Sequence record: OK428535.1
Strand: one strand, 5' to 3'
Source of the DNA: Escherichia phage vB_EcoM_Lh1B
Length of the DNA: 64,000 bases
Shown: one piece after another, positions 10,674 through 48,146 of the stretch
Layout: every line of letters starts with the position of its first letter
How positions within the stretch are numbered: position 1 is the stretch's first letter
Position numbers and translations under genes: made by a program
The notes under the pieces: model-generated
The model's input: the letters and a program-made list of their open reading frames with translations, nothing else
What the model was told of the DNA's origin: nothing
The model's database searches: none

Positions 10674-10694
10674 TAGATATTATCTTAGGGAGAG
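10674..10694 (+). promoter_or_regulatory. promoter-like palindromic element, copy H (TAGATATTATCTTAGGGAG)
   Basis: Member of the AGATA-N-TATCT-TAGGGA family seen eight times. Confidence 0.4.
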
Positions 10695-10866
10695 AGTCGT
10701 TCGGTTTTAACTTAAGGAGACAGTAATGGTAATCAATTTAGAGAGATCAAGACTAGTTGCACCGATGTTTGATGGGCGCGGTTTTATGGCGAACGGTCCC
10801 AACGTCTAATACCCTAAAGTTTTTTACGTTAAGGGCACTGGGTATGAACCCGTGCCCAAAGTAATC

Positions 10867-10889
10867 TGAGATAGATATTATCTACGTGA
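10867..10889 (+). promoter_or_regulatory. promoter-like palindromic element, copy G (GAGATAGATATTATCTACGTGAA)
   Basis: Same motif family; upstream of gene 10899. Confidence 0.4.
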
Positions 10890-10898
10890 ATAATTCTT

Positions 10899-11927
10899 TT
10901 GGTATTATTACTGGGATGTTCAATGAACCGTTATGATTTAGACGTTCAGCCAACGCTAACCCAGCGGCCCATGCACCGTGGTGCCGTGTCGAAGACTATC
11001 ACGTACGAAAATAATACCGGGTTTCCCATATNCNNNACNGAACTCAGTGGCGGGCATTTTGTTTTAGCCCCGTCGTCCACCACAGCGGCGGAATTTGGGN
11101 TTGTGATTTACGTGACCTATACGGTGTTTGCGAACGGTGCTAACCTATCTGGTTTGCGCGACGCACATTCGCCAAAGCAGTATGCGCAGATATGTAAGGA
11201 ATTAACTACGAACGGCGAAACAACGCTGATGTATGTAGTTGATGATATCGGTGCATTAATGCGAGGCGACTTGGTGGTGTTGAAGAAGCTAGGAATGGCT
11301 TTCTCTACTCAACCAGTAAAACTCGATTCTGAGGTTATTGGTAAGCCGGGAGGGGATCGTAAAGAATTTGCCTTGGGCGTGGTAGTTGTACAGAAGTACG
11401 AAGACCCAGCACCTTTAAAGTGGCTGAGGTTCTATACAACGATGTTGGAAGTCGAACCGATTCGATCGAAGTATTACGACGAGGGTATTTACATGGTAAT
11501 CGGTGGTGCGGAGTGCGTCGAAGGGGGTAAGATGATAATGTACTCTTTCGATGACCCGATGTCCCCGTTCCGGGCGTTTGCATCTGAAGATGAAGCGAGG
11601 CGTTATCGGTGGCTCGATAACATTCCAGAGTTGCGANNTGTTCGTGCGAAGCTGGAAGCCACGTATCAGGCCAAGTTGCAAGATCTCGATGAGAAAAAGA
11701 ATCGGCAAGACCTCGATTATCGTACACAACTTAATAATCTGGCGCTAGAGAAGGAGAGGATTAACACCCTTAACACAATCCAGACGAATGAGCTTAAGTT
11801 GCGTTCCGATGTTCGTAAAGACCAATACGAGTCCCGAGCTTATCAGCGAAAAGATAGCTCGGAGTTCTTGAAATCCATTCCCGCGTATTTGGCTGCAGGG
11901 GTAGCACTCGTTGGGATGATTCTCTGA
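10899..11927 (+). CDS. hypothetical protein (342 aa) with coiled-coil and C-terminal transmembrane segment
   Basis: Long ORF; start ambiguous (an in-frame ATG at about 10923 is an alternative). Confidence 0.55.
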   Translation: MVLLLGCSMNRYDLDVQPTLTQRPMHRGAVSKTITYENNTGFPIXXXELSGGHFVLAPSSTTAAEFGXVIYVTYTVFANGANLSGLRDAHSPKQYAQICKELTTNGETTLMYVVDDIGALMRGDLVVLKKLGMAFSTQPVKLDSEVIGKPGGDRKEFALGVVVVQKYEDPAPLKWLRFYTTMLEVEPIRSKYYDEGIYMVIGGAECVEGGKMIMYSFDDPMSPFRAFASEDEARRYRWLDNIPELRXVRAKLEATYQAKLQDLDEKKNRQDLDYRTQLNNLALEKERINTLNTIQTNELKLRSDVRKDQYESRAYQRKDSSEFLKSIPAYLAAGVALVGMIL

Positions 11928-11938: not shown

Positions 11939-13717
11939 ATGTTTAAAGATGCGATTAGGAAGATTAAAGAGGCAGGCGAAATAGTGCCTTTTAATCGTGC
12001 AATTGCAGAAGGAGTTGGGTACACACAAGCTAAAGACGGGATACATGATCGTGTGGCAACCATTCTACGTCGTGAGTTGACGTATGATGAAATCGATAAC
12101 CCGAAATTACCAGAAGGGTTAACGGTGTTAGGCTGCCGTCAGATGTCCCCGTTTGAAGCTTTTATCTTTAAGTTATCGAAGTCGGATAACAATTCACGAA
12201 ACAATCGTGGCCGGTCAATTATTAACATCTCATCCACTGACACGTATATGGTAATGGCCTCGTTCCGAGTTCCAGGCGATCCTCGCCCGGTGCAACGACC
12301 AATGAGCCTGCCGTTTATTCGTCGTGGCGGCTTAATGAACTACTACGGTACAACGTACCACGTAGCACCTGTAATCCACCAACCTGGTATTTGTCGTGAG
12401 CACGGTGGTATCTTTATTAACTTTGACTTCACCCGCAAGGTGTCTATCAAGTTCTGTAAGAAACCAACGAAGATTCTGGTGAATGGTCGCCCTGAGCAGC
12501 TGTTCTTGCCAGGTACATCGAATCTGTTTGTCTCAACTGGACAGATTGGACACGACACCGATGAGAAACCACTGATGTATTGGCTCTTTGGGCGCTACGG
12601 CTTTAAACAAGCTGTGAAGCGTTATGCGGGCGTTGATGTGACGATTTGGCCAGCGATTAAAGTACGTGATGTGGACTTAACGAAGTATGTGGTGATTCAG
12701 TCCGGTGAGCCACAACTCGCGAAGACCATCCAGTACGTACTGTTGGTTAAACGTGAAGATATGCCTAACACCGATGCAGGGCGTTGGGATCAAAACGAAC
12801 ATCTGTTGCTGGTAGCGACTGCCGCATTCTTCAAAGCGGCGCACTATTACGCAGGTAAACAGAACAGTAAGAACGGTCGTGCACCAACACTGCCGGGGCT
12901 GTTTACACAGATTAACGAAATGGCAATGGACGAAGATATTGCGAACCTCAATTCTGCAGCCTCCTGGCGCGAAGTGTTGGGTCGTAGTATTCGCGGACTG
13001 AAGCCTTCGGATATCGAACTGAGTCGCAGTATGGACAGCCACTTCCAGGAATGTGAACGCTATGTCAACAGCACCTTCCGTGGTGAGCTGATGGCAAACG
13101 ATCCGTCCATCCCTGATGATTTGGATATGTTTGATTTCCTCTGGTACACCACGCAGCTGATGGTGCGTACTCGTCTTACCAAACAAGATGATATTCCGTC
13201 TATGTACGGAAAACGTCTCACGGTAACCGATTACTTACTGTTGGGCCAACGTGGCTTTACCACAACGATCTCGAAAATACGTTGGAAGCTGGGGCAGTTG
13301 GAACATCGGACTCCAGAGACAGCGGCGAAGTCTATTCGAGACGCACTGAACAAACAGATCGTGCTCAATCTGGTGATGCGCACCATTACGAGCAACGGCG
13401 GTATCAGTTTCTTCAATGCCTCTACAGAATCAATGGTATTGGCAGTGTCTACGCACGCCATCGGTCAAACCGAAACCGATGCTAAGCGTTCGAAGAAAGG
13501 AGGCAAGACCGTTAACTTGAACGACCGTACTAAGCACGCATCTGCGTCGCATCTGGAATGTGGTAACGTCTACTATATTCCTAAGTCGGCACCGTTTAAG
13601 GCGAACATCCTCAACCCGTACATGAAGACCAACCCAAGTTTGGTAATGATGCGGAATCCTAAACTGGACCCGTACATCAGACCGACCGAAGAAGACATTG
13701 CTAAAATCGGCCGCTAA
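11939..13717 (+). CDS. hypothetical protein (592 aa)
   Basis: GGGAGG RBS upstream; long ORF. Confidence 0.65.
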   Translation: MFKDAIRKIKEAGEIVPFNRAIAEGVGYTQAKDGIHDRVATILRRELTYDEIDNPKLPEGLTVLGCRQMSPFEAFIFKLSKSDNNSRNNRGRSIINISSTDTYMVMASFRVPGDPRPVQRPMSLPFIRRGGLMNYYGTTYHVAPVIHQPGICREHGGIFINFDFTRKVSIKFCKKPTKILVNGRPEQLFLPGTSNLFVSTGQIGHDTDEKPLMYWLFGRYGFKQAVKRYAGVDVTIWPAIKVRDVDLTKYVVIQSGEPQLAKTIQYVLLVKREDMPNTDAGRWDQNEHLLLVATAAFFKAAHYYAGKQNSKNGRAPTLPGLFTQINEMAMDEDIANLNSAASWREVLGRSIRGLKPSDIELSRSMDSHFQECERYVNSTFRGELMANDPSIPDDLDMFDFLWYTTQLMVRTRLTKQDDIPSMYGKRLTVTDYLLLGQRGFTTTISKIRWKLGQLEHRTPETAAKSIRDALNKQIVLNLVMRTITSNGGISFFNASTESMVLAVSTHAIGQTETDAKRSKKGGKTVNLNDRTKHASASHLECGNVYYIPKSAPFKANILNPYMKTNPSLVMMRNPKLDPYIRPTEEDIAKIGR

Positions 13718-13748: not shown

Positions 13749-15419
13749 ATGAGCATTACTGTTGAACAAATCAAAAACGTCATCGTTAAACACCTCGATC
13801 AGGACGCGGTACTGTCGCAGTTGAATAACGTGATGCGTAGTCGTAGCATTCCGCCAGATCAGGCGTTAAAGATTGCGACGTATGTTGCGGCATGGGCAGC
13901 ATCCAAAGGGGGTAGTGAAGCACAGGTTATCGCATATGCAGTCGATGCGTATAAAGCAGCTGCCTATCAGCAGGTGCATAACGCAGGCGACGCGTATANN
14001 GACGATCGTCACACCAAACTGGTTAATGCTTGGGAACAAGTCGGTAAGATTCTTGCCGAAATTCGTTCTCAGCAGTCCGGCGGTTTGGGTGGCAGTGGTG
14101 GTTTAGGTGGTGGTAGCAACGCAGGCGGGTTACTGGGCGGTAACAGTTCTGGCGGTGTGCGTGTTACTGATGGCTTGACCATGNCTTCTGCGCCATCCGG
14201 TGGTGTTAAGATTGGTAACACGGATGCGGCACTAACCGTGATTGCTGGCGGCGCAGGTCTTAACCTGGTCAGTGATCCTATTCTGAACCCACAGCCAGCG
14301 CAAGTAGCCCCAGCACAACAGCCCCAGCCTGAACCAGCACCGGTGCCTGTACAACCAATGCCGGTGTCTAATGCTACAGTTAATAACCCAGTGCTTTCCC
14401 CACTCGGCGCAACAGAAGAAACCGAGAAGGACACTACCAATGGCCCAATTAACAACATTCTGCAGGAGATTGATTTGATGGAAGACTACGCACTTCACGA
14501 GCTNAAAACCCCCGAGCTTAAAATGTCNATTCCAGCGAAGGAAGCTAACAGTCGCATTAAGCAATCTGTTTACGCGGAAACGCGTGATTGGGCTACACCG
14601 TTGCAAGATATCTTTAACGGTAATGAAGAGGTTGTTTTCTACGACGGGGCTGACCTGATTGTGCGTGCACGGGATAGTTATCGCGCGTATCTGGTTGGTG
14701 TTAACACTGATATGTGCGAACGCATGAAGCAATTTGTTGCTAAGCACGACGCACTGAAATCCGATCTCGACAGCCTGGCGTTGGTAGAAGATGTTGAAAC
14801 TATCATGGCTAAGGTGAAACGTACGATCGATGAGCTGCGTAAGAACACGAAAGAACTGCACGATTATGCGATTGCGAACAGCAGCGAAGCAGAAGTGGTT
14901 ATCAGTGAAATTTCTCGCTTTGCTAATGCGTACCTGGCGAATATCACTTTCCTGGTACACAACGCGCTGTCGCTGGGCACTAAGCGTGGTAAAGATGTGC
15001 CGAAGTTCAAAGCCATCGATTTCGAACGGAAAATCAGCGATATTGATTTCTTCGTAAAAGATCTGTTCACTGCAACCGCTGGCGACAACGGCGTAAGTGA
15101 ATATGAAGACTGGTTCCGTGACCTGTTCCTGATGGTGGCGAACTCTCTGCGCAAACTGACTATCAAGCTGAGCGATTCTGGCAAGGTGGTTAATCTGATT
15201 CAGAGCCAGTTCACCATCGTGATTCCGGGCATGTACCATTCTGTTGATAAACACGACGTAGTTACGGTAGCGTCTCTGGGCAATACCGCAGACCCGGTTG
15301 TGTCTATCTACGAAGCAGTACAGGAAAACGTGCCACATGCAATTGTATTGATGCAGCTGCCGCAGCACACTTACTTGCTTCTGAGCAATGGTGAGAAAAC
15401 TGCACCAGTGTTGTACTAA
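13749..15419 (+). CDS. hypothetical protein (556 aa) with Gly-rich and Pro/Gln-rich linker
   Basis: AAGGAG RBS; the 378-aa antisense ORF is treated as a shadow. Confidence 0.65.
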   Translation: MSITVEQIKNVIVKHLDQDAVLSQLNNVMRSRSIPPDQALKIATYVAAWAASKGGSEAQVIAYAVDAYKAAAYQQVHNAGDAYXDDRHTKLVNAWEQVGKILAEIRSQQSGGLGGSGGLGGGSNAGGLLGGNSSGGVRVTDGLTMXSAPSGGVKIGNTDAALTVIAGGAGLNLVSDPILNPQPAQVAPAQQPQPEPAPVPVQPMPVSNATVNNPVLSPLGATEETEKDTTNGPINNILQEIDLMEDYALHEXKTPELKMXIPAKEANSRIKQSVYAETRDWATPLQDIFNGNEEVVFYDGADLIVRARDSYRAYLVGVNTDMCERMKQFVAKHDALKSDLDSLALVEDVETIMAKVKRTIDELRKNTKELHDYAIANSSEAEVVISEISRFANAYLANITFLVHNALSLGTKRGKDVPKFKAIDFERKISDIDFFVKDLFTATAGDNGVSEYEDWFRDLFLMVANSLRKLTIKLSDSGKVVNLIQSQFTIVIPGMYHSVDKHDVVTVASLGNTADPVVSIYEAVQENVPHAIVLMQLPQHTYLLLSNGEKTAPVLY

Positions 15420-16150: not shown

Positions 16151-18895
16151 TTAGAGGACGTTGTCTGGGTTNTCGTNGNTAGTTNNTTCACCACCTTCTG
16201 TGCCTTCCNTTCCCTCGGTAGTTNTTTCCGTGGTTTCGGTCGACTCAGTAGTTTCCTCTGTACTATCACCACCGGTGCCGTTATCCGTATCGAGATCGAG
16301 GTCTAAATCATCGTCACCCCCACCGCCGAGATCCCCATCGCCACCACCAGTGTCACCGCCCGCATCAAAACCACCACCGAATCCGCCGGAAGCATCATTA
16401 GGATCAAGGTCGGCATTCTTCGCTAACGTTTCCAGTCGCCCGGTGAAACGTTTCGCCAATTGAATCAGCGTTTTCGAAGCAGCCATCGCTTCATCAGTCA
16501 TCATGGTGATGTTGTCCTGACGAGAATCATCGTCGTAAACCAGATCGAAGAAGTCGGTTTCAATACCTTGTTTACGCAGCCAGTTGCGCGTATAGAAGGA
16601 CTTGATCATCGTCTTCAGATCGTTCGGGTCCATCGAGATGCCTTCTTGCTGGAGTTGCGCAGCAATGTCATCCGTTACAACCAGATCAGCCAGCTTCTCA
16701 AAGAACTCCGTACGTTTATCGAACAGCTCCATCTGCGAAGCTGCTGCCGATGTGTCGGGTGGTGGTAAGGTTACTTTCATACCGTTGATAAACGCAGCCA
16801 GATACTCAGAGACCTTTTTCGTAATCTGGTCAGTAGTCATCCCATTGCCGTTAGCATTGATGTACTCTGCAATGATTTTAATCATCGCTGATTGCAACGA
16901 CGGAGAGGCCAACATCCCATTAACTACGTAACGTGTCAGTGGCTTAGAGAGAATCTCTTGCTTCTTAACAACCTGCTGGGTGACCAGTAACGATTTAGAG
17001 AAGATCTGTGAAGCAAACTCGATGTTCTCGGGGGTCATTACCAGGTCAGGGTCAACACCTGCGATGTGACAAGTGCGACGTAACAGACCTTCGTCGAAAT
17101 CCTTATCCGGGTATTTATAATCCGGCGTAGTGTCCGACACAGACACTTTGGTACTACCGTAGTAGTCGTTACCAATAACGTTAAACGCAATACCTGCGTT
17201 TGTCGTCATTGCCCAGGTGTCGTTCATGTCCCCCCACATCGGTTGACGACGGTTATAGGAGTTCATGATGTCTGTTTTCAGCTGGTCAATTGTTTTCTGA
17301 CCGTTCATGTCATCTGGTGCCAACTCAATGTCGTACTGCATGTGACGTGCAGAGTTTAACACCGCAGAGTTCATGGTAGCGAACAACAGCGCCATACGGA
17401 CAGTAGAGATAACGAACGAGCGTTCGGTAATAGATACACCGATACCATCTTCATCAAAGTCCGTGGCAAAATAGCAAAGGTTTTCCGCAGGAATATAAAT
17501 AACCTGCGTATGGCGTTTTGCCAGATGGCGCGCCAGCATGATACGGCTGAACGTTTCGGTTACTGTCATGCTAATCTCAGCACCACCCAACGCCTCACCC
17601 AACGCTTTTGTCAGCTGGTCTTCAGCAATCTCACCATAACGCGCTGTTAAGCGGTTAGCAATGTCTGGTGTGATTCGGGTTGTGTTGCCCATCCCCAGAT
17701 TCGCGCGGTTGATTGTCGAATCTACCATACCGTCGTTGTTCAGGTAGTTCATGAAGTTCGCATCCCCGTAAAGTGTGGAACGCGAGTTAATGAAGTTACC
17801 CATTTCGTCAACGATGGCCAGATAACCTATGGGGTTACGAACATCGTCACCGATAACGAGTGGGAGTGTGGACTCTGCTGGCAGTAATCGTTCCGTGTAT
17901 TCGATTTTGTTGGCATCGGAGAAACTCATCTTCGGTACTTCGCCGTAAAGCTTTTGCTCAGGCGTTTTCTGGTACGCTTCGTTGAGGTCGCCGATGTTGA
18001 TTAAACCGAGTTTTGCCTTCTCTTGTTCGCTGTCTGTGAACTGGTCAGCGTTATACTCTGACGCACCTGTCGGCGTAGAAGGTTGTTCATATGCGTACTG
18101 CTCTAACTGACCGAACAGGCCGGTGCGAGCATTCTCCTGTGCCACACGGCGATAAGCCTCTGGTAGCAGGGTAATACGCGGGTTGTCGGTGATAACGATA
18201 TCCAGGGAAGCTAACATACCGTCTGCTTTAAACGGACTGTTAGGGGCTGATGCAAAGTTAAGTTTAATGGTTTGTGGCTTGGTGGGCTTGTCAGCGCCAC
18301 GTGCACGACCCAGAATACTTTCTACGCCAACCTTCGGTTTGTTTTCACCGCCAATCTTGCCCAGGATACCCAACTGACGTTCAAAGAAGTCAGATTGGCT
18401 ACGGCGCAACGATTCGGTTGCAACAGACGGCTTTAAGCCGAAGAGTTCATCGAATCCGGTATCTGAAATCAGCAACACCGGGCTCGCGCCTTTGGATTTC
18501 AGTGCATCGTAAATCCACTGATACAGTTTGTTGGGTAACTGGCGCGTGTGGTCATGGAATTCACGCACAGGTTCCAATAACTGCTGACGCAGGTCGATCG
18601 GGATATCAGCCACGTTGTCGTAAATCAGCGTGGTGTTAATCAAATCTTTTGTGGACAGGAGCGAGGAGGTCGCGATGGTAACAATGACCTCTAACTCAGG
18701 GAGCGCATCAAAGATACGTTCGGCATTTTTAACGGTGCGAATGCGGCTACTCGCAATGCCCGTGAGTTCTGTACGGGTTGGTGTAACGCCGCCATCTTCA
18801 CGCTTACCGCGTTGCTGCTGAGCCGACGGGCTCGTGGACTTACGCAGTATGGCAGCTACCGCGGGGTCGCCCGTTAATTTACTAATATCTTCCAT
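16151..18895 (-). CDS. large hypothetical protein (914 aa) with acidic Gly/Asp-rich C-terminal tail; possible portal
   Basis: 2.7-kb minus-strand ORF; GGAG RBS on minus strand; five genes away from putative capsid gene; portal call is speculative. Confidence 0.35.
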   Translation of the reverse strand: MEDISKLTGDPAVAAILRKSTSPSAQQQRGKREDGGVTPTRTELTGIASSRIRTVKNAERIFDALPELEVIVTIATSSLLSTKDLINTTLIYDNVADIPIDLRQQLLEPVREFHDHTRQLPNKLYQWIYDALKSKGASPVLLISDTGFDELFGLKPSVATESLRRSQSDFFERQLGILGKIGGENKPKVGVESILGRARGADKPTKPQTIKLNFASAPNSPFKADGMLASLDIVITDNPRITLLPEAYRRVAQENARTGLFGQLEQYAYEQPSTPTGASEYNADQFTDSEQEKAKLGLINIGDLNEAYQKTPEQKLYGEVPKMSFSDANKIEYTERLLPAESTLPLVIGDDVRNPIGYLAIVDEMGNFINSRSTLYGDANFMNYLNNDGMVDSTINRANLGMGNTTRITPDIANRLTARYGEIAEDQLTKALGEALGGAEISMTVTETFSRIMLARHLAKRHTQVIYIPAENLCYFATDFDEDGIGVSITERSFVISTVRMALLFATMNSAVLNSARHMQYDIELAPDDMNGQKTIDQLKTDIMNSYNRRQPMWGDMNDTWAMTTNAGIAFNVIGNDYYGSTKVSVSDTTPDYKYPDKDFDEGLLRRTCHIAGVDPDLVMTPENIEFASQIFSKSLLVTQQVVKKQEILSKPLTRYVVNGMLASPSLQSAMIKIIAEYINANGNGMTTDQITKKVSEYLAAFINGMKVTLPPPDTSAAASQMELFDKRTEFFEKLADLVVTDDIAAQLQQEGISMDPNDLKTMIKSFYTRNWLRKQGIETDFFDLVYDDDSRQDNITMMTDEAMAASKTLIQLAKRFTGRLETLAKNADLDPNDASGGFGGGFDAGGDTGGGDGDLGGGGDDDLDLDLDTDNGTGGDSTEETTESTETTEXTTEGXEGTEGGEXTXXXNPDNVL

Positions 18896-18906
18896 TGGGG
18901 TCTCCG

Positions 18907-37390: not shown

Positions 37391-37399
37391 GGAGAGAAT

Positions 37400-38480: not shown

Positions 38481-38508
38481 TTCGCCATTGTATGACCCTT
38501 AAACACCG

Positions 38509-39003: not shown

Positions 39004-39007
39004 GGTT

Positions 39008-39045: not shown

Positions 39046-39099
39046 TACATCAGTCCACTAACTTATGTGAAACAACCCACGTAAAGAGGAATTAAGAGA

Positions 39100-39417: not shown

Positions 39418-39709
39418 GCCCACGCTGACGCACCAGGAACTGCACGTCCGTTTTATTCGGGCGTTCACACCCCCGTTAGGTGGTGAGGTACACGATCGTT
39501 CCGTGGTTGCAGAAGTTAAAGGTATCGGCGAAGAACTAATGACACTGTCTAATATTGTGACGGGTGTTGAGTTCACGTTACCGTTAAACGTATTTCGGTT
39601 TATTCCGCGCGTAAACGAAACGCTGCTCATCGACCGTGTACATCATCGGATTATGGCGCAGGTACATCCTAGCCGTAAAGAGTATGTGCGCTTAGAGATG
39701 ATGGTCTAA
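39395..39709 (+). CDS. hypothetical protein (104 aa)
   Basis: In-frame ATG at 39395 within ORF-track entry 39152-39709; overlaps upstream gene by 23 nt. Confidence 0.45.
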   Translation: MSNLNPIEPTLTHQELHVRFIRAFTPPLGGEVHDRSVVAEVKGIGEELMTLSNIVTGVEFTLPLNVFRFIPRVNETLLIDRVHHRIMAQVHPSRKEYVRLEMMV

Positions 39710-39716
39710 CGCACGA

Positions 39717-39746
39717 CTTTTCAGATAGATGTTATTTTACTGAACC
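39717..39746 (+). promoter_or_regulatory. promoter-like element, copy E (TTTTCAGATAGATGTTATTTTACTGAACC)
   Basis: Same motif family; 26 nt upstream of gene 39772. Confidence 0.45.
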
Positions 39747-39771
39747 TAACTGTAAAGAAAGGAAAAAGTAG

Positions 39772-40077
39772 ATGGCTAAACAATACACAATTGTCAAACG
39801 TGCAGGTACGACTCTGCTGTACGTGGAGAAAGGTTGTGAGAACACTGCAACCGCCAAGAAACTGAATCTGCAAGGGTTTCTGTATCAAGGTCTCCGCGCG
39901 GGTTTGACCATCACTTTTAAAGGCTTACCACAGGCGAAGAATCTGCGCGTCGTACGTGCAGACGGTGTAGAGCGTGCCTTGGTAGCCGACACCCCGGTTG
40001 ATACTATCCCTGCCACTAAGAAGGCAGCGAAAGCAACCAAGAAAGTCGTCGATAAACGCAAACGCGTTGTCGCTTAA
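39772..40077 (+). CDS. small basic protein (101 aa), possibly DNA-binding
   Basis: Lys-rich C-terminus (KKAAKATKKVVDKRKR); terminator downstream. Confidence 0.5.
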   Translation: MAKQYTIVKRAGTTLLYVEKGCENTATAKKLNLQGFLYQGLRAGLTITFKGLPQAKNLRVVRADGVERALVADTPVDTIPATKKAAKATKKVVDKRKRVVA

Positions 40078-40082
40078 GTAGT

Positions 40083-40123
40083 CCCCTACCTAACTTCGGT
40101 TAGGTAGGGTTCTTTTTATTTTT
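40083..40123 (+). terminator. rho-independent terminator (UUCG loop)
   Basis: CCCTACCTAAC-TTCG-GTTAGGTAGGG followed by T-run. Confidence 0.7.
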
Positions 40124-40143
40124 AACCCTCTGGGGGATATACC

Positions 40144-40596
40144 ATGTTTCAATGTTCAGTCGTCAATGATGCGGAATTGGCCGTGTACAAGCAGCGCACA
40201 ATCCGGGCGCTGGATGCTGAAAAACCAGTCGATCTTAAAACGCGTGCAATCATTAGGGCATTTAGCGAATGGCCGAACATCGCAACCGTTTGGGCATTCA
40301 CGGGAGAAGTTCGCAAAGACGGAGACAAGCTTCGTACACGTAGACACCACAGCTTAACATTTGTGGCAACCGTGGCGGGTCTTAAAGACATTAACCATTT
40401 ATTAGAAGGATGGCAGCCGCACGAGTACGGGAAACGTTTTCAGTTAAACTTTACTTGGCTGCGTCAAGAAGGCAATGCGAATCTCTGTTATCCAAGCTGG
40501 ACGTTTAGACTCAACTATCGACCCGACCCAGATGTGATGGAAAGTGTGATGGAGCACTGGCTCGCACTCGCAATTTTTACAGAACACAACCATTAA
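40144..40596 (+). CDS. hypothetical protein (150 aa)
   Basis: ORF. Confidence 0.5.
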   Translation: MFQCSVVNDAELAVYKQRTIRALDAEKPVDLKTRAIIRAFSEWPNIATVWAFTGEVRKDGDKLRTRRHHSLTFVATVAGLKDINHLLEGWQPHEYGKRFQLNFTWLRQEGNANLCYPSWTFRLNYRPDPDVMESVMEHWLALAIFTEHNH

Positions 40597-40624
40597 ATGA
40601 AGACAACCTTAAGGAGAATTAAAG

Positions 40625-41095
40625 ATGCCAGTTTTATACGGCGGCGTGGACCTGGATGTTCTGGGTCGGTTTAAACTACGAACGTCTAAGGCGCTCGTAA
40701 ACGGTTGGGTTGAGAAAGGCGTACGGGATGCGTGTGAGGTCATTTGTAGTTATCCTGGTGCCACGACAATGTGGTCGTGTCACGGACACGGACCGTATTC
40801 TAAAAAGAACACACCGGGGGAATTTCATGTGGTGTTCGTTCTTGGCATCGGCTTTGAACACAAAGCACATGAGCTTGTCGCTGAGTTAATGAAAGCGGAT
40901 ATTCCGCCACTGTGGGATTTGTGCATGGCGAGACTCTTGTACCCTGATGAGGATTTCGTCTACGACCTCAGCGAGATCACCCTAAAGAACACGTATAACG
41001 CATGGAAAATAACGTATCGGCATCTGCATACCGAACAAACTCTTCGCGAAATTCGTAAAGTATTCCACACTGTCTGTAAAAAGGTTTTTAAGTAA
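40625..41095 (+). CDS. hypothetical protein (156 aa)
   Basis: AAGGAG RBS; ORF. Confidence 0.5.
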   Translation: MPVLYGGVDLDVLGRFKLRTSKALVNGWVEKGVRDACEVICSYPGATTMWSCHGHGPYSKKNTPGEFHVVFVLGIGFEHKAHELVAELMKADIPPLWDLCMARLLYPDEDFVYDLSEITLKNTYNAWKITYRHLHTEQTLREIRKVFHTVCKKVFK

Positions 41096-41793
41096 TGGCT
41101 AAGCAAAAGAAACCCCGTAACAAAAAGTATAACCCAAAAGCTGCTACAGAGCGTACAGCGCACACCATCGCTGAAAACGCACTGAACCGCATCACCTTTA
41201 TTGGCAGCTCCATTCGCCGCCTCGGCCCGTACGCGGGCCGCGGTTTTCACTTTACAGCAAGTCCACGTATTCGTGCTATCGCCNCAGACATGTTAGTCGG
41301 CGGATTGTTCGACCAACCGCGCCCATGGCACCTGTGGGTGATGCACCTCACCGAACTCGACAGCGGTGAGGTTGTGACTGAATCTGCCGTCGCCACGCTT
41401 GACGATTATACACTGGCTGATTTCTGCGAACATGCCGAAGAGCTGGTTAAATCGCTACGTCCTGAACAGGAAGAAGGGAAATATTTCGGTTATGCGTTTG
41501 TGGCCGCCCCGAACGAGCGGTACGACTTCAAAGCGGAAGAAGACCAACTCATTGAAAACTTCATGCATTCTGGACTACTTGATACGTCGTTACATCTGTC
41601 GGAAGAACAGCAGTTCGTTAGTCGTGCAGATATGGCAAAGTTACTTGTTGGTTATACTCGGAAGTTTGACGTGACCGTTGAACATGTCAAAGAAGTACCA
41701 GAGATTNTNANCNAGAAAGACGAGGTGGTGCTTCCGGTTGACGAGGTTGTCAGTAAAGTAGCGACTGCGATAGGGGCAACGGGGGATTACTGA
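41095..41793 (+). CDS. hypothetical protein (232 aa)
   Basis: ATG overlaps upstream stop; ORF. Confidence 0.5.
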   Translation: MAKQKKPRNKKYNPKAATERTAHTIAENALNRITFIGSSIRRLGPYAGRGFHFTASPRIRAIAXDMLVGGLFDQPRPWHLWVMHLTELDSGEVVTESAVATLDDYTLADFCEHAEELVKSLRPEQEEGKYFGYAFVAAPNERYDFKAEEDQLIENFMHSGLLDTSLHLSEEQQFVSRADMAKLLVGYTRKFDVTVEHVKEVPEIXXXKDEVVLPVDEVVSKVATAIGATGDY

Positions 41794-42002
41794 TGAATCT
41801 ACGTTGGCCGATCGTGGCTGCTGTGTTGTTTTGTATTTATATCGCCATCAGCACCAGTACCCGCACTGCAGAACGTCGCGAGACCGCAACCAGTACGTTC
41901 AGAATGTGCATTGACCGCGTAGACCCGAACAGTACCACTTATCCTGACGCGGTGAATGCGTGCCGTAAAGCAGTTGCTGAGATATTGAAAGAGGAAAATT
42001 AA
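41793..42002 (+). CDS. small membrane-anchored protein (69 aa)
   Basis: Hydrophobic N-terminus WPIVAAVLFCIYIAI; translationally coupled. Confidence 0.45.
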   Translation: MNLRWPIVAAVLFCIYIAISTSTRTAERRETATSTFRMCIDRVDPNSTTYPDAVNACRKAVAEILKEEN

Positions 42003-42229
42003 TGGAAAACCTCACGCCGGTTGAGATAGTGGCGCTATTCGATCGTTACGTATATGGACAAACGCAGGCAAAGAAAATGNTGGCGATTGCGCTACGTAAT
42101 CGATACCGTGCCAATAAACTTAACGTAGTGGACCGTATGTCGGTCCACAAACAGAACCTTTTAATAGAAGGTCCAACAGGCACGGGTAANNCNNAGTTGA
42201 TGCGTGAAGAAAAACAGAAACAAAAGTGA
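42002..42229 (+). CDS. HslU (ClpY) N-terminal fragment: AAA+ unfoldase N-domain truncated after Walker A
   Basis: LTPVEIVALFDRYVYGQTQAKK..AIALRNRYR...NLLIEGPTGTG matches the HslU N-terminus motif for motif; stop follows at 42227-42229. Confidence 0.6.
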   Translation: MENLTPVEIVALFDRYVYGQTQAKKMXAIALRNRYRANKLNVVDRMSVHKQNLLIEGPTGTGXXXLMREEKQKQK

Positions 42230-42237
42230 GGTAAAGG

Positions 42238-43245
42238 ATGACGAAGCTCGTTTCGTTTTCAGCAGGGTTGGATTCCACCTGGATAATGTATCAGCTGCTA
42301 TGCAAAGCACCGGCCAATGAAGCACGACATGTCCGTCCTGCGTATTTCTCCATGTGGAATGGAGGTAACGCGAACTTCATGGAAATTCTTTGTAGCGTGG
42401 CCATTGTTGAACGGTTGATGGATAGACACCATGCACAAACCGATCATGTTACATGGGCGGTGCTCGGGGAAGAGAACTTCCCGCCTGTCGTTACCGCTGG
42501 ATATGCTAACGGCTGGTCGCCTCTGGTTCAGCAGGGCAATGTTGTTAATGGTCTCGCTAAACTGATGTGTGGTATTACGCGCAAACAGCACCACGCCTAT
42601 GCAGTTGTTGGTTGGAATAAGCTAGATGCGTTGGAGAATAGTCTAGAGCTGGGAGATTGGACATTAGACGAGTACGCTCGCTTAAAGAACCTCTATAGCG
42701 AATTGATGTATTTCCAAGATCATGCCGGTCGCGTTCCACCGCTTCTAACACCTGCGTGGGATAAAGAGAAACTGGAAATGTGGCAGGAGTTGCCGGAAGA
42801 TGTTCGTAGGTTGGTACAGGTCAGTAACTACAACAACTACGAATTCGCGATAGACCGTGGGAATAACGTGCTCATCGTTTATGCCAATCCGTCAGCAAAG
42901 TCGCAGAATTATCGTAGTCTTGGTATTACACCGTCAGTGGGATGGGAGATTAAAATCAACGATGCTTACAGACGGGTATGGTGTTCTGCTCTTGGTAGTG
43001 CTATTTCTGCTATGGGTTTGGGCGTACCGGCTTTTGCTAACTTTAAGGACCCGGAAAGAAACCACACGNCCTTTACGGTAAGNGAAGATACTGACCGGTT
43101 ATGCATCACATCGTTTACCGCGGAAGAGTGGTGCGAGTATGCGCCACATTTTAAAGCGCTTCAGGAGAAAGAAAAAGAGANAGNNAAAAATGCCAAAGCA
43201 AGTAAAGCTGNGGACGCCCCAACTGGCGAAGNGGCGGATAGCTGA
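42238..43245 (+). CDS. hypothetical protein with N-terminal PP-loop-like motif (335 aa)
   Basis: LVSFSAGLDST resembles the SGGxDS PP-loop of ATP pyrophosphatases; 3' end N-containing. Confidence 0.4.
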   Translation: MTKLVSFSAGLDSTWIMYQLLCKAPANEARHVRPAYFSMWNGGNANFMEILCSVAIVERLMDRHHAQTDHVTWAVLGEENFPPVVTAGYANGWSPLVQQGNVVNGLAKLMCGITRKQHHAYAVVGWNKLDALENSLELGDWTLDEYARLKNLYSELMYFQDHAGRVPPLLTPAWDKEKLEMWQELPEDVRRLVQVSNYNNYEFAIDRGNNVLIVYANPSAKSQNYRSLGITPSVGWEIKINDAYRRVWCSALGSAISAMGLGVPAFANFKDPERNHTXFTVXEDTDRLCITSFTAEEWCEYAPHFKALQEKEKEXXKNAKASKAXDAPTGEXADS

Positions 43246-43573
43246 AAAACGGAATTTGCCAAAGCTGGATATAACGGTTAAGTCGGGGCTGAAATATTTG
43301 GCACCCGACTGGGACTTTCTGATGGACTACAAGAAGTCTGACAAAGGCCCCGACGCAGAAGCTGCGTATACCAAACGCTACCTGCAGAAACTTAGTCGGT
43401 TGTTTGATGAAGACACCGATAAGTTGATAGAGATTCTCCGCCAGGGCGAGGTCGTACTAATGTGTTATTGCCCACCGGGGAAATTCTGTCATCGCCACTT
43501 GCTAGTTTCCTACCTTATTGAAATCGGTGAGTGGTTCGGTTATGAAGTAATTTACATGGGCGAGTTATCGTAA
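43190..43573 (+). CDS. DUF488-like protein (127 aa)
   Basis: C-terminal VVLMCYCPPGKFCHRHLL resembles the conserved Cys...CHR motif of DUF488; overlaps upstream ORF across Ns. Confidence 0.4.
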   Translation: MPKQVKLXTPQLAKXRIAEKRNLPKLDITVKSGLKYLAPDWDFLMDYKKSDKGPDAEAAYTKRYLQKLSRLFDEDTDKLIEILRQGEVVLMCYCPPGKFCHRHLLVSYLIEIGEWFGYEVIYMGELS

Positions 43574-43584
43574 GGAGAGTCCTC

Positions 43585-43980
43585 ATGAAATTGATTATGC
43601 CTAAAACCGTTCCTAATCAGGATATGGTTACGACTACACTGTTTTCTGAATCATTACGCAACTCTGTACGTCAGACCGCTTCACGTCTAGACGTGGCAGT
43701 TGAAGAACTCGACCCNGAAGTCTTCATGAAGTATGCGTTTATTGCAGAAGGTTACGCGATCGCCCTGAGTTATGCGCGGTATGTCGATGACGTGACAGAA
43801 GCTAAACGTTATTTAGAAGGCTGTTGTCAAGTTTTCCGTGAAGAAATCACCGAGATGGAGATGGTTGACCGCGGCTTACCTGAATTTGTAAAGGTGGGTT
43901 ACGATAAGCTGTTGCAATCCATCGCGGATGAAATCGGACGTCGCGGGTTAACTGTAGTGCACAGCGCTACACTGCACTAA
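43585..43980 (+). CDS. hypothetical protein (131 aa)
   Basis: GGAG RBS; terminator downstream. Confidence 0.5.
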   Translation: MKLIMPKTVPNQDMVTTTLFSESLRNSVRQTASRLDVAVEELDXEVFMKYAFIAEGYAIALSYARYVDDVTEAKRYLEGCCQVFREEITEMEMVDRGLPEFVKVGYDKLLQSIADEIGRRGLTVVHSATLH

Positions 43981-43992
43981 CACCGTACGAGT

Positions 43993-44033
43993 AGGCTACC
44001 ACACGATCATATGTGTGGTAGCTTATTTTTTTG
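43993..44033 (+). terminator. rho-independent terminator
   Basis: GCTACCACAC...GTGTGGTAGC hairpin followed by TTATTTTTTTG. Confidence 0.65.
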
Positions 44034-44048
44034 TTTCTGGAGGCGTTA

Positions 44049-44588
44049 ATGGCAGACCGCTATCAGCCCGACCTAACACTCTCGTCGAAAGCGCTTGTCG
44101 TGGCGCTTATCAATCATGACAATAATCTGTCACTTACTGATAAAGAGATTGTGATTAGGGATATTGATGCGAACGCTTCACCAGACATCATCCCGAAGAA
44201 CACACAGGCAAGCGTGGCCAAAGCACGTAAGCCAAATGGGAAAACCGTGACAGTCTATTATGACCGGTTAAGTGCGTCTACCGTGCTAGACAGTTTTCAG
44301 CCGCTATTGGTGTCCTTAGACGGAACCGAAACGGACATTCAGCAAATTGCCAGTGTGATTAACGGTTACTGCGGTACAAACTTGTCAGCAGCAGACTTAC
44401 AGTCTGCGCCAATCGTGGTCAGCGACGATTTTACCCTGGTGAATATCACTGGCGATTCCCCAGCATGGCTTGGGACATTTATCGCAACCCTGTTTACCAA
44501 AAATGAGTACGTTCTTTCAACTGACACTGACACGGTGCTGTGTCTGGATGAGAACACTGTGCTCGTACTGACTGACGAGGAAGAGTAA
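44049..44588 (+). CDS. hypothetical protein (179 aa)
   Basis: GGAGG RBS before ATG 44049. Confidence 0.5.
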   Translation: MADRYQPDLTLSSKALVVALINHDNNLSLTDKEIVIRDIDANASPDIIPKNTQASVAKARKPNGKTVTVYYDRLSASTVLDSFQPLLVSLDGTETDIQQIASVINGYCGTNLSAADLQSAPIVVSDDFTLVNITGDSPAWLGTFIATLFTKNEYVLSTDTDTVLCLDENTVLVLTDEEE

Positions 44589-45073
44589 TGGCCAGCCCAG
44601 TTAAAAAGCAAACATTTGAGAGCTTACCATTTTATACCGATATCACCAACGTGAAAGATGGGATGTTCTTGTTTATCAAAGATGGGAAAGCGTATCAGTA
44701 CCCGCTCGAGATGTTGGGTGTCCAGAAGGTTGCTCAGGGTGTCGTTATTCGTGATGCGGCGTATGAGTTGGAAGCGGCAGCAGCCACTGATTGGTACCTA
44801 GGACTGTCGCAACCGGAAACCGATCTCACTATTAAACCTGATGGAGTATTGGGGGCATTTCGGTACACGCTCAACCTGACTATTCTTCAGGGAACGGGAG
44901 CCAACAAAATTAACTGGCCTTCCAACGTGAAGTTCCCCCATGATGCATACCCGGTGCTGTCGTACCAGAAAGGGAAATCGGACATGATTACCCTGACTAC
45001 AATCGACGGCGGTTACACCTGGAAAGGTGGCGTTAGTGGAACAGGATATACAGAATGGGTAGAAACTCCTTAA
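44588..45073 (+). CDS. hypothetical protein (161 aa)
   Basis: ATG overlaps upstream stop; operon with the large downstream gene. Confidence 0.5.
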   Translation: MASPVKKQTFESLPFYTDITNVKDGMFLFIKDGKAYQYPLEMLGVQKVAQGVVIRDAAYELEAAAATDWYLGLSQPETDLTIKPDGVLGAFRYTLNLTILQGTGANKINWPSNVKFPHDAYPVLSYQKGKSDMITLTTIDGGYTWKGGVSGTGYTEWVETP

Positions 45074-48072
45074 TCGCAGTACGGACAGGGATTAACTACG
45101 CACTGTCGCTGGCTTACGGACATCAGGACTTTGTTCGTCGAAACACCGGCTTAACTAACGACGCCCACAATGACCATTATCTGATTAACCCAGAAGGGGT
45201 GCTATCTAATAACCGGCATTTCATTGCTGACTCCATGGCAGTGTATCAACCTAATGGTGACGCCACCACAGAAGGTCAATCGTTGCTGATTATTGGCTAC
45301 TGTCACATGTACATTGCTACCAAAAACCAGATGTGGTTAGATGCGGCGATTCATGCATGGGAAGCGTACGCTACCTACTATTACGCAGGTCAGGCCATTC
45401 CCGATTCACCACAACGTTGGATTTGTAACTGGCTAGTTAACGGTAAAGAGCCAGTGCTGGCAGACTATCCGGTGCATCCGACCGAGCCAACCCACGGTGG
45501 TTATAAGTGTGTACCGGTAACGTTTACGAACGGGCGTTGCCAGATACCCCAAGGCGCACCATTCTTTGGTGAATATCTGAACAATTTCTTTTCTGCGCAT
45601 CGTGGCCATCCTACTTGGGGTGCGGTTAATGCCGACGTACAGAAAATTAAGGAATCGGAAGACGGGTTAATTGACTGGTCTAAAGTCCCTGATTACTTAA
45701 TCGTCAATCCAGAGAAACCTTACGATGTAAAAGCGTGGGTGGACTGGAACACGATGCTAAACGACCCAACCGGATATACACCAATATGGGGCGGTTCTAC
45801 CTCGAAAGGTCCGCGGTACGAACCTGACTGGTTTGTTGTGTGGACGGGTGAGAAGGTTCAAGACGGCGATGTCATCGAATCCGGTTTACCTGATGCCCAG
45901 AAAGGAACCGTACAATTAAAGGACACTAGTATTAACGGTGTGTATTTGATTAACTACGCTTCCCAGGTACCTGTAGAGCACGGCGGATATTTGTTTGACC
46001 GCAATGAGCCGTGGCACAACCGTCCGGTTCATACCCCGTTAAAAGGGTCTGTTAACCAGATGGGTAACGCGGCAGATGCGGAAGTGTGGTTTATTGATGC
46101 CTGTTATCTGCTCTGGCGTATCACAGGTGAACCGCGCTATAAAGCCGCATTAGACTCCGTGTTCTATACAGCGCACGAGTACACGTATATCGATGCGAAG
46201 GACAAGTTTTTCCGTCGTTCTAAGCTAGCCGAAACACCATTTACAGATGGTATCTCGTACGACTATAAATACCCCAGCACCGTTGAGGTCGCTTACAGTC
46301 GTGATGAAAATGGTGATATTGTGTTCCGTTCTGAGGAAGCTGTGCAGAACTTTATGGAACAGCAAGCCGTGCGTTTCAGGATAAACAGTCAATCGAAGTT
46401 ACGTGTGACATATGGCGGTGTTTGTGACAACGGTGATGCACTTGCGTGTAAAGTGATGGTGGATATTAACCCCGTCAAAGCGGATACTGAAGAAGTAAAC
46501 TGGTACGGCTGTACGCTCCCGGGATCAACATCGATGGAAGTAGAACAGCATGACATCGATTTAGGGCATCTGGCCAGAATGACCAATCCGGCCAACGGCG
46601 AAGATTACATCATTGCCGATGCGCGAGCATGTTCGGACTACGGTGGGTGTACGTGGCAGGAGAAGTTTGAGAACAACATTTACGATGGTCGTTCAGGGAC
46701 AATCGTAGAAGCGTTATTCCCGAACGACGATGCGGGTTTCATTATCGGTTTCTGGTTAACCGATGCCGGTGTTGCACCCCCACAGTCAATTGTCTATCGT
46801 GCCGATGCTGATTTCAACTTCCGTTTCGAAGATACCGACAAGTGGCGTTGGTGGTGGATGTTGCCCGCGACTAACGGGGAATGGAAACAGGTTATTATTC
46901 GCCCTGAAGACGCAACACTCTCGGGCTATCAACCTGACCACGATACCGACGTCGAACCAAAACCGGCTGCGCCAAACTATACAACTATCGATCAGGTAAC
47001 CATACTGCCCGATTCGGCTGTGGAGAATGCGCACTTTAGCTGGTATTGCGTAAACGATGTTCCGCCCCTGTTTAATGCAGACGACGGTTGGACGTTAACG
47101 TTCCGTATTGTAATTCGGGGAGGTTCTGCATTTACGGGTAAGGTGGGCGATTGTACGATAAAAGATTACCGTCTTGACTCGCTCGCGTATTGTCCAGGTA
47201 CGATACCGTTCTCGAACATTTATTCGGAAGGAACGTATCAGCTAGGTGCATGGCACGGGATGCCGTATCCCGGCTATCAGTATCCGTTTATGTACACCAT
47301 ACACACCGATGATCGCTACAAAGACTGGCTCTTAAATCAGATTCGGTTTATGCACGATTCACAAACCAACTACCAAACGCAGATAGGTGAGTTAGGTCCA
47401 GGTTGTGCGGCGTATATTTGGAACCGTTGGGATAACTACTCTTACGGCCCGGCAGATACGTGGACAACGTTCCATTGGGGCGATGGACATCCGTGGGCAG
47501 GTTATCAGCCGCGCGCGTATAACGCCGCTGCGCGTTGTTGGTACGAATTAGTTGTGCGTGGTAAAGAGGTTCCACCTGAGCTAGTAGTGTACGTTGAAAA
47601 TTGGGCTAAGTGGCTCGTAGGGTTCTTAGACCGCTTTGACAACCACACCCCGAATGAATTCCCTACGGCACCAAATAAACCGGTATGGGTAGAGAATGAT
47701 TTCACAGCACATATGTGTGCGCTCTGGATAGCAGGCAGTGCTTATGCGGCAATGGCCGGCTGTACAGTGGAAGGGTTGAGCCGTATTATGGATATGGGGA
47801 TGAAGGAGATGGGTGACAACTTCACCGTCACCGACATTCCAGGAAAAGCCATTAACGGTGCCTGGTCTCCATGGGCAAATCCCACCACGGATAACGGTCA
47901 GGCTTTTGGGTTTTATACTGGAGAAGCGATGCGTGCAATCGGGTTGTATCTCCTCTATAAAGAACACGGCGCAGGACATGATATTTATCGTGACTTGGCA
48001 ATCCCCGACCACACAACAGCCTCGCTCGATATAACGTTTACTATCCCAGACGATCCGCTCGAAACTAATTAA
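45055..48072 (+). CDS. large Trp/Tyr/Gly-rich protein (1005 aa), possible virion or tail-associated protein
   Basis: 3-kb ORF coupled to two upstream genes; terminator downstream; function not recognisable. Confidence 0.6.
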   Translation: MGRNSLIAVRTGINYALSLAYGHQDFVRRNTGLTNDAHNDHYLINPEGVLSNNRHFIADSMAVYQPNGDATTEGQSLLIIGYCHMYIATKNQMWLDAAIHAWEAYATYYYAGQAIPDSPQRWICNWLVNGKEPVLADYPVHPTEPTHGGYKCVPVTFTNGRCQIPQGAPFFGEYLNNFFSAHRGHPTWGAVNADVQKIKESEDGLIDWSKVPDYLIVNPEKPYDVKAWVDWNTMLNDPTGYTPIWGGSTSKGPRYEPDWFVVWTGEKVQDGDVIESGLPDAQKGTVQLKDTSINGVYLINYASQVPVEHGGYLFDRNEPWHNRPVHTPLKGSVNQMGNAADAEVWFIDACYLLWRITGEPRYKAALDSVFYTAHEYTYIDAKDKFFRRSKLAETPFTDGISYDYKYPSTVEVAYSRDENGDIVFRSEEAVQNFMEQQAVRFRINSQSKLRVTYGGVCDNGDALACKVMVDINPVKADTEEVNWYGCTLPGSTSMEVEQHDIDLGHLARMTNPANGEDYIIADARACSDYGGCTWQEKFENNIYDGRSGTIVEALFPNDDAGFIIGFWLTDAGVAPPQSIVYRADADFNFRFEDTDKWRWWWMLPATNGEWKQVIIRPEDATLSGYQPDHDTDVEPKPAAPNYTTIDQVTILPDSAVENAHFSWYCVNDVPPLFNADDGWTLTFRIVIRGGSAFTGKVGDCTIKDYRLDSLAYCPGTIPFSNIYSEGTYQLGAWHGMPYPGYQYPFMYTIHTDDRYKDWLLNQIRFMHDSQTNYQTQIGELGPGCAAYIWNRWDNYSYGPADTWTTFHWGDGHPWAGYQPRAYNAAARCWYELVVRGKEVPPELVVYVENWAKWLVGFLDRFDNHTPNEFPTAPNKPVWVENDFTAHMCALWIAGSAYAAMAGCTVEGLSRIMDMGMKEMGDNFTVTDIPGKAINGAWSPWANPTTDNGQAFGFYTGEAMRAIGLYLLYKEHGAGHDIYRDLAIPDHTTASLDITFTIPDDPLETN

Positions 48073-48078
48073 GTGTAT

Positions 48079-48120
48079 ACCAGCTATCCTTCGGGGTGGC
48101 TGGTACGCTTTATTTTATTT
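48079..48120 (+). terminator. probable rho-independent terminator
   Basis: Imperfect hairpin CCAGCTATCC-TTCG-GGGTGGCTGG followed by TTTATTTTATTT. Confidence 0.5.
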
Positions 48121-48146
48121 CAGATAGATGTTATCTCAGTGAACCT
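48118..48146 (+). promoter_or_regulatory. promoter-like element, copy F (TTTCAGATAGATGTTATCTCAGTGAACC)
   Basis: Same motif family; about 55 nt upstream of gene 48200. Confidence 0.45.

Follow-up and report, generated by a model that had tools for sequence, protein, structure and literature searches.

Early-promoter-like elements and their leaders in 64 kb of Escherichia phage vB_EcoM_Lh1B

Promoter copies and genes at the locus

The stretch of DNA analyzed here, referred to as the window, comprises 64,000 nucleotides (nt) of the Escherichia phage vB_EcoM_Lh1B (sequence record OK428535.1) and carries a family of eight promoter-like elements, all on the + strand. The five copies listed in a first-pass annotation were found exactly where it had placed them, and the three copies which it had called early-type lie at 3848, 32880, and 52670. 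The element spans about 31 bp in the window, AAAnnWTTTCAGATAKATATTAYCTnrGTGA, and exists in two core variants, termed A and B. The family is real and far beyond chance, and it is a family of promoters, not primarily of regulator sites.

A 3.2-kb piece of the window (45055–48300) is 97–99% identical to SPN3US, a Salmonella jumbo phage of the genus Seoulvirus, and to about 30 of its relatives; window position 1 corresponds to about 61.85 kb in SPN3US. This phage is related to phiKZ and possesses a five-subunit virion RNA polymerase (vRNAP) composed of gp42, 218, 240, 241, and 244 (PMC5694885) as well as a second, non-virion RNA polymerase (nvRNAP; PMC5105663). Genome-wide tests were carried out on the complete, annotated SPN3US genome and on the complete genome of Asesino, an Erwinia phage from another genus (Erskinevirus) whose DNA is about 76% identical in the capsid-gene region compared. 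Machina, a phage of Machinavirus, was also compared. The eight copies and the genes behind them are given below, where positions named for the five listed copies are those of the AGAT in AGATRTTAT.

3834–3864, + strand: promoter copy, variant A (AAATAATTTCAGATATATATTACCTAGGTGA); predicted start near 3863; orthologues at 65415 in SPN3US and 66947 in Asesino; followed by a 47-aa open reading frame (ORF) from 3916, then by small genes
10661–10691, + strand: promoter copy, variant B (nnTAGATATTATCTTAGGGA, core TAGATATTATCTTAGGGA); AGAT at 10675; partly masked by several upstream N; predicted start near 10690; just past the terminator of the major capsid gene
10859–10889, + strand: promoter copy, variant B (GAGATAGATATTATCTACGTGA, AAGTAATCTGAGATAGATATTATCTACGTGA); AGAT at 10873; predicted start near 10888; conserved in Asesino (74902) and also in Machina; followed by genes 10923–11927, 11939–13717, and 13749–15419
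31165–31195, + strand: promoter copy D, variant B (GGATAGATGTTATCTTAGGGA, TATTTTTTTTGGATAGATGTTATCTTAGGGA); AGAT at 31179; predicted start near 31194; right behind a terminator; drives gene 31292–32056, which ends at terminator 32063–32084
32866–32896, + strand: promoter copy, variant A (ACTAAATTTCAGATATATATTACTTAGGTGA); predicted start near 32895; drives the gene of a helix-turn-helix (HTH) DNA-binding protein, 32948–33313
39713–39743, + strand: promoter copy, variant B (CAGATAGATGTTATTTTACTGA, ACGACTTTTCAGATAGATGTTATTTTACTGA); AGAT at 39727; predicted start near 39742; drives a 101-aa gene, 39772–40077, which ends at terminator 40084–40109
48112–48142, + strand: promoter copy F, variant B (CAGATAGATGTTATCTCAGTGA, ATTTTATTTCAGATAGATGTTATCTCAGTGA); AGAT at 48126; predicted start near 48141; just past the tail-gene terminator 48078–48105; drives gene 48200–48532
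52656–52686, + strand: promoter copy, variant A (AATTATTTTCAGATATATATTACTTAGGTGA); predicted start near 52685; drives gene 52739–53185

Searching the window with the pattern AGATRTTATYTNABKGA at up to two mismatches returns exactly the five listed copies, compared with 0.48 expected, and none of 100 shuffles reached five. A matrix built from these five also recovers the copies at 3848, 32880, and 52670 (TTTCAGATATATATTACYTAGGTGA), and no window site beyond the eight scores above 12.1 bits with it. The copies had been described as lying shortly before gene starts, which is borne out: seven of the eight are separated by 47–76 nt from a downstream start codon that has a Shine-Dalgarno sequence, and for the eighth (31177) the distance to the ATG at 31292 is 115 nt. 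Their description as often lying right behind a terminator is partly correct: the listed copies at 10675, 31179, and 48126 are each preceded by a canonical hairpin with a T-run, the one at 10873 by a hairpin that has no T-run, and the one at 39727 directly follows a stop codon. Across all eight copies, five have a canonical terminator within about 70 nt upstream, two a hairpin without a T-run, and one a stop codon. No Pfam match was obtained for ten genes downstream of the copies.

In each of the self-contained cassettes 31165–32084 and 39713–40109, situated among head and tail genes, a single small gene lies between an early promoter and a strong terminator, which suggests insulated early genes within late regions. 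Between the copies 10661–10691 and 10859–10889 lies a 27-aa ORF (10726–10809; MVINLERSRLVAPMFDGRGFMANGPNV*), which is what remains of a 232-aa gene. SPLA3, the SPFM phages, SEGD1, and others retain the intact gene, and its Asesino counterpart is gp92. The window, SPN3US, and EC001 share a deletion of about 610 bp within this gene.

The window contains 259 N in 222 short runs, concentrated in a few stretches (1323–1440, 4278–4417, 5640–5674, 8061–8135, 8389–8419, 10568–10672, and elsewhere), and these runs cover the upstream half of the copy at 10675. The pattern resembles that of a Seoulvirus assembly which is of low quality or was built as a consensus; comparable defects are suggested by SPFM records in GenBank, several of which matched in 37–39 pieces.

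Distribution and conservation in complete genomes

Enrichment upstream of genes had been fixed beforehand as the observation on which the promoter proposal was to stand or fall, and it was found in the complete genomes of both SPN3US and Asesino. The relaxed core A[GT]A[TG]AT[AG]T[TC]A[TC][CT] occurs 21 times in SPN3US, compared with 1.0 expected from first-order Markov simulations. All 21 matches lie on the + strand and are co-oriented with the downstream gene, and 18 of them are intergenic, a compartment that makes up 6.4% of the genome (binomial P=3e-19), at 43–111 nt before a + strand start codon. The 33 genes on the minus strand, most of them structural, lack copies altogether, and a structural annotation is absent from all 19 promoter-proximal genes (P=0.014). 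Asesino likewise has 21 matrix matches, all on the + strand; 20 SPN3US sites have a syntenic partner there, the only one without being the intragenic match at 25228. Orthologous sites persist in Machina.

An ungapped comparison of 21 orthologous SPN3US/Asesino pairs, numbered from the A that starts ATAKAT in the core, yields a sharply bounded conservation profile. Of the 14 positions between -2 and +11, all but +6 (67%) are 86–100% identical. Identity is also 100% at -12, and the last two bases of GTGA, G at +17 and A at +18, reach 100% and 90%. Both AAA (-12 to -10) and TTT (-6 to -4) are kept between the genera, and identity falls to about 45% beyond -12 to +18. Because conservation is confined to these limits, the functional unit comprises about 31 bp and is both oriented and asymmetric.

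When the upstream regions of all SPN3US genes were screened for k-mers, Shine-Dalgarno sequences, T-runs, and the early core emerged, together with weakly enriched TATGTA and TATGAG, and no further promoter class beyond these k-mers. The two TATG hexamers, whose frequency in the last 90 nt before SPN3US genes is raised about 4-fold, recall the TATG element of phiKZ late promoters.

Core variants and the dyad

The first-pass annotation had separated five "further" copies from three early-type ones. This split corresponds to two real core variants, yet both belong to the same family. Variant A has the core ATATATATTACY followed by an almost invariant TAGGTGAGA and is represented in the window at 3848, 32880, and 52670, whereas variant B, to which the five listed copies belong, has the core ATAGATRTTATC and a variable initiator. 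At each site, SPN3US and Asesino carry the same variant type. In Machina, two orthologous sites have switched type but retained the leader. Since Machina switches type in this way and the predicted early-promoter consensus of phages OBP and N1M2 spans both cores, A and B are regarded as variants of one promoter.

Both variants also carry the marks of known early promoters. Among the 8-mers of the first 50 kb of phiKZ, TATATTAC shows the strongest enrichment in gene upstream regions; all seven of its occurrences fall there, in the context TTTAAACAG-TATATTAC-N4-TTGA, including the one before PHIKZ054. Variant A reads TTTCAGA-TATATTAC-N4-GTGA, with the same octamer and the same spacing as in phiKZ, and its core ATATATATTACY contains the octamer, while ATAGATATTATC of variant B fits YAKATATTATY, the OBP/N1M2 core. 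The A/T-rich segment ahead of the core agrees with the upstream region of known early promoters (WWWWWTTTCARR), described as T-rich upstream of -19 (PMC8244752), and a conserved AT-rich core of about 10 nt is found in both variants. A conserved GTG or TTGA follows 4 nt past the core, where the start has been mapped in known early promoters (GTGA in SPN3US and Asesino, TTGA in phiKZ, TATATTACDWHDGTG in 201phi2-1). Moreover, the elements stand co-oriented at the start of early operons, including those of nvRNAP genes, and not before virion genes. The comparison with phiKZ-type promoters that the first-pass annotation had suggested thus reveals the same core and the same spacing. Together with the genome-wide enrichment, this strongly supports one of its two proposals, a promoter class of a phage RNA polymerase.

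The other proposal was derived from the dyad AGATA-T-TATCT, which would be the operator of a dimeric phage regulator, for instance the HTH protein encoded at 32948–33313, with binding as the primary function. The dyad itself is only partly as described: it is perfect at 10675 and 10873, matches at four of five positions per arm at 31179 and 48126 and at three of five at 39727, and is absent from the three variant A copies, so that two of the eight window copies carry it in perfect form. Most variant B copies of the SPN3US genome carry AGATATTATCT as a perfect palindrome (5-1-5), both base differences between A and B generate complementary dyad positions, and the HTH gene sits behind a variant A copy, all of which speaks for an operator. 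A palindromic operator is expected to show the dyad in all copies, symmetric conservation, and freedom of orientation, none of which was found. Instead, the conserved footprint (-12 to +18 from the reference A) reaches farther upstream of the dyad center (19 nt) than downstream of it (11 nt), its flanks TTTCAG and GTGA are not symmetric, all 21 copies are oriented like the gene downstream, and the same asymmetric motif is an early promoter in phiKZ-related phages. Given that the dyad is perfect in only two listed copies and missing from the early-type ones, a dimeric-regulator site is not the main explanation, and it is very unlikely that regulator binding is the primary function of the element. 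An operator may overlap the promoter; the regulator site is at most such an overlay.

Leaders of the two variants

The leaders downstream of the predicted starts contain the following features:

3862–3895, + strand: leader of the variant A copy at 3834–3864, with a 7-bp stem-loop at 3862–3881 at the predicted 5' end and the box AATCGACTAT at 3886–3895
32893–32926, + strand: leader of the variant A copy at 32866–32896, with the 5' stem-loop GAGAGTT...AACTCTC and the box AATCGACTAT at 32917–32926
52683–52719, + strand: leader of the variant A copy at 52656–52686, with the 5' stem-loop GTGAGAGTTAA...TTAACTCTTAT and the box AATCGACCAT at 52710–52719
31206–31216, + strand: box AATTACGTTTC, the 3' arm of the copy D leader hairpin (GAGACGT...ACGTTTC)
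48152–48162, + strand: box ATTTACGTTTC, within a weak leader hairpin of copy F

In SPN3US and Asesino, all 14 variant A leaders open with a stem-loop of 6–11 bp that begins at the GAG of GTGAGA. The stems differ in sequence and keep their pairing through compensatory changes between copies (GAGAGTT/AACTCTC, GAGCGTTA/TAACGCT, and GATAGA/TCTATC). Folding yields a mean free energy of -7.8 kcal/mol (z -3.3) for variant A leaders as opposed to -3.0 kcal/mol (z -0.2) for those of variant B. The stem-loop is followed by the box AATCGACYAT, which lies roughly 8–15 nt before the Shine-Dalgarno sequence, and then by the ATG. Of the seven SPN3US copies, six place this ATG at a nearly constant 67–72 nt from the reference A, and one places it at 94 nt. 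Stem-loop and box together probably affect mRNA stability or translation. For the box itself, mRNA stability, translation, or a role as a protein-binding site are possibilities. Away from variant A promoters, AATCGACYAT occurs 11 times in SPN3US, always on the + strand, compared with about one expected, and several of these occurrences precede other genes.

The first-pass annotation had also pointed to a downstream AAAWTTACGTTTCA box common to copies D and F. Both boxes are present (AATTACGTTTC at 31206, ATTTACGTTTC at 48152), and the box occurs only at these two promoters.

Which polymerase reads the elements

Early transcription of phiKZ proceeds without host RNA polymerase or new protein synthesis, and its early motif has been attributed to the virion polymerase (PMC7598289, PMC8244752, PMC11512511, PMC10914365). 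For the element described here, the genes behind it bear on the same question. One nvRNAP gene lies in the window itself:

11939–13717, + strand: nvRNAP subunit gene, homologous to PHIKZ123 (PDB 7OGP chain E, E=3e-20); second gene behind the copy at 10859–10889

Its SPN3US counterpart, gp77, is the N-terminal part of the nvRNAP beta subunit (PMC5105663). Elsewhere in SPN3US, 17704–19299 is homologous to PHIKZ055 (5e-39) and 29014–31251 to PHIKZ071 (2e-29). Each of the three nvRNAP gene clusters has a variant B copy upstream, directly or across one gene, while no copy lies directly upstream of any vRNAP subunit gene in SPN3US. The nvRNAP cannot make its own first transcripts, and the promoters of its clusters must therefore be read by an enzyme that is present at injection. 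This argument, the inviability of SPN3US particles without vRNAP (PMC5694885), the lack of copies before the vRNAP genes, and a negative sigma-70 scan jointly point to the vRNAP.

The negative scan bears on the possibility that the elements are strong host sigma-70 promoters through which host RNA polymerase expresses the early genes. The core hexamer (TATATT or GATATT) indeed has the T-A---T pattern of a -10 box and is preceded by an A/T-rich segment resembling an UP element. Nevertheless, none of the four copies in 30000–49000 was called, and sigma-70-like sites numbered 17 in that region compared with 23 expected, without enrichment. TTGACA and TATAAT elements spaced by 16–18 nt are not found, and there is no conserved -35 box. 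Recognition by sigma-70 does not involve CAG, YC, or GTGA, which are invariant in the element. The same motif also works in the Pseudomonas phage phiKZ, whose transcription is independent of host RNA polymerase (PMC7598289, PMC10914365), and a sigma-70 reading does not fit the inviability of SPN3US particles devoid of vRNAP. Host promoters are thus a highly improbable explanation. Hairpin promoters of the type read by the N4 virion RNA polymerase were considered and rejected, as the hairpin is restricted to variant A and a few variant B copies and lies downstream of the core, in the leader.

A division of labor between the two phage enzymes has to be weighed as well, in which only the three variant A copies would be early promoters of the virion polymerase and the five listed variant B copies would form a separate, later "middle" class read by the nvRNAP. 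The site-by-site conservation of the variants between SPN3US and Asesino is in line with such a division, as are the leaders, with a hairpin in 14 of 14 variant A and rarely in variant B, and a report that some nvRNAP genes of 201phi2-1 stand behind middle promoters (PMC11512511). However, the nvRNAP requires prior transcription of its own genes, and variant B is the only recognizable promoter directly upstream of all three clusters. Both variants share spacing, upstream A/T segment, and GTGA box, the core type switches at orthologous Machina sites, and the OBP/N1M2 early consensus YAKATATTATY covers both. The middle motif of phiKZ, a TACT at about -22 after an A-rich repeat (PMC8244752), is unlike variant B. 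A distinct middle class is therefore quite unlikely. As candidates for the element as a whole, the nvRNAP promoters of phiKZ were likewise discarded, since neither the middle motif (TACT/AT-rich at about -22 to -24) nor the late one (TATG overlapping the start) occurs in it.

The eight elements are thus very probably early promoters of an SPN3US-like, phiKZ-related jumbo phage, with the vRNAP as the most likely enzyme. That this polymerase reads both variants appears probable as well. The vRNAP, a multisubunit enzyme packaged in the virion and injected with the DNA, would recognize the elements and, straight after injection, transcribe small host-takeover genes, the regulator gene, and the nvRNAP genes, with A and B being read by the same enzyme. 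Each element comprises an A/T-rich upstream segment (AAAnnWTTT), a highly conserved AT-rich core (CAGATA-K-ATATTAYC) centered about 10 bp before the predicted start, and the conserved GTGA as the most likely site of transcription initiation. Judging by alignment with known early promoters, the start would fall on the G or A of GTGA. The upstream terminators would insulate each early cassette from the surrounding late genes.

Several points weigh against this interpretation. The SPN3US match at 25228 falls within a gene, and the copy at 10661–10691 now drives only the 27-aa remnant ORF. Because SPN3US and Asesino keep either A or B at each given site, the two variants may differ in function, for which a single-polymerase model has no explanation. 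The -10-like hexamer inside the core would, from sequence alone, permit some use by host RNA polymerase. Finally, the searchable literature yielded neither mapped transcript 5' ends nor expression timing for SPN3US-like phages, which is why start site, early timing, and choice of polymerase rest on homology and logic. The sequences themselves show the family, where its members lie in the genome, that they are conserved across genera, and that the motif is the published one.

A two-tier system, in which variant A is constitutive and immediate-early while variant B doubles as the operator of an early regulator that times the switch from vRNAP to nvRNAP, is conceivable if unlikely. Variant A would be defined by its TATATTAC core, the obligatory 5' stem-loop, and the leader box AATCGACYAT; variant B, whose two diagnostic bases create the perfect palindrome AGATA-T-TATCT, would control all nvRNAP genes. 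The candidate regulator would be the HTH protein (32948–33313), itself encoded behind a variant A copy.

Some neighboring genes are of interest in their own right. The third gene behind the copy at 10859–10889 (13749–15419), right after the nvRNAP beta gene, is homologous to SPN3US gp78, an essential protein whose loss abolishes the production of many proteins (PMC5105663). Its product has no PDB or Pfam match and could be an nvRNAP-associated factor. In SPN3US, the tandem copies 15616/15709 precede a 617-aa gene adjoining the PHIKZ055 homologue, a synteny shared with the phiKZ shell gene PHIKZ054, which likewise has two promoters. An assignment of the 617-aa gene as nuclear-shell protein was not upheld, as it has neither a PDB match nor BLASTP similarity to PHIKZ054, belongs to a PHROG family without known function, and agrees in synteny only. 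The 394-nt spacer between gp054 and gp055 of phiKZ (47529–47922 region) looks highly structured.

Significance

Transcription by the injected virion polymerase of an SPN3US-type phage should begin at these elements. They provide an operon map of eight early cassettes in the window and about 21 in the genome, and they single out genes that are probably early although they lie inside "late" structural regions. As SPN3US is a genetic model for giant phages, they also represent ready-made, host-independent promoter parts and precise targets for the mapping of 5' ends. The biology is not new, the same motif being established as the early promoter of phiKZ-related phages. What is added is modest: the near-identity of the motif across phages of Pseudomonas, Salmonella, Erwinia, and Klebsiella, the two conserved core variants, and the structured leader on one of them.

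Comparison with early promoters of other phages

According to a review, the early motif can be located bioinformatically in every jumbo phage that encodes an RNA polymerase (PMC7598289). In the available excerpts of PMC7058600 (Lewis 2020), TTTCARRYAKATATTATYWAAGTG is the predicted early-promoter consensus of OBP and N1M2. The predicted promoters are listed there as TTTCARRYAKATATTATYWAAGTGWA for N1M2 (TBYAWWWWWTTTCARRYAKATATTATYWAAGTGWA), TTTYARRYAKATATTATYWWADTG for OBP (BSHAWWWWWTTTYARRYAKATATTATYWWADTG, citing Cornelissen 2012), ...TATATTACDWHDGTG for 201phi2-1 (...BTATATTACDWHDGTG), and TATATTAC for phiKZ. The present element is nearly identical to the OBP/N1M2 consensus base for base (WWWWW-TTTCAG-ATAKATATTAY-N3-4-GTGA), occurs likewise in tens of copies per genome (31 in N1M2, 21–22 here), and stands at the start of operons with genes of unknown function and RNA polymerase beta genes. 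It differs in host and genus (Salmonella, Seoulvirus) and in having two conserved core variants and a structured leader, neither of which is mentioned in those excerpts.

The early 5' ends mapped in phiKZ and 201phi2-1 have the AT-rich motif about 10 bp ahead of them (PMC7598289, PMC8244752, PMC11512511), whereas the starts given here are predicted from the DNA. No vRNAP of the phiKZ-related group had been purified as of PMC5312081. Variant A shares with these phages the identical TATATTAC followed by 4 nt and (G/T)TGA, the T/A-rich upstream segment, the position before early and nvRNAP genes, and a comparable copy number (28–32 in phiKZ). In contrast to phiKZ, where AAACAG or GAGATT stands to the left of the octamer, CAGATA is found here, and variant B has GATATTAT in place of TATATTAC.

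More distant parallels exist in the Bacillus jumbo phage AR9, where an AT-rich element of about 10 nt at around -10 precedes early operons and is attributed to a virion multisubunit RNA polymerase (PMC7598289, PMC5312081). AR9 nevertheless differs in the sequence of the element, its uracil-containing DNA, and the lack of a phage nucleus, and its kinship is only distant. Promoters of the T7, T3, and SP6 class are also long, conserved, oriented, and phage-specific, number about 20 per genome, often lie past terminators, and give rise to some transcripts with a 5' stem-loop. They are served by an unrelated polymerase family and have another consensus, with a conserved block from -17 to +6 in the T7 class. 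The promoter family of the window is thus one already described for phiKZ-related phages, of which the elements described here are the local version.

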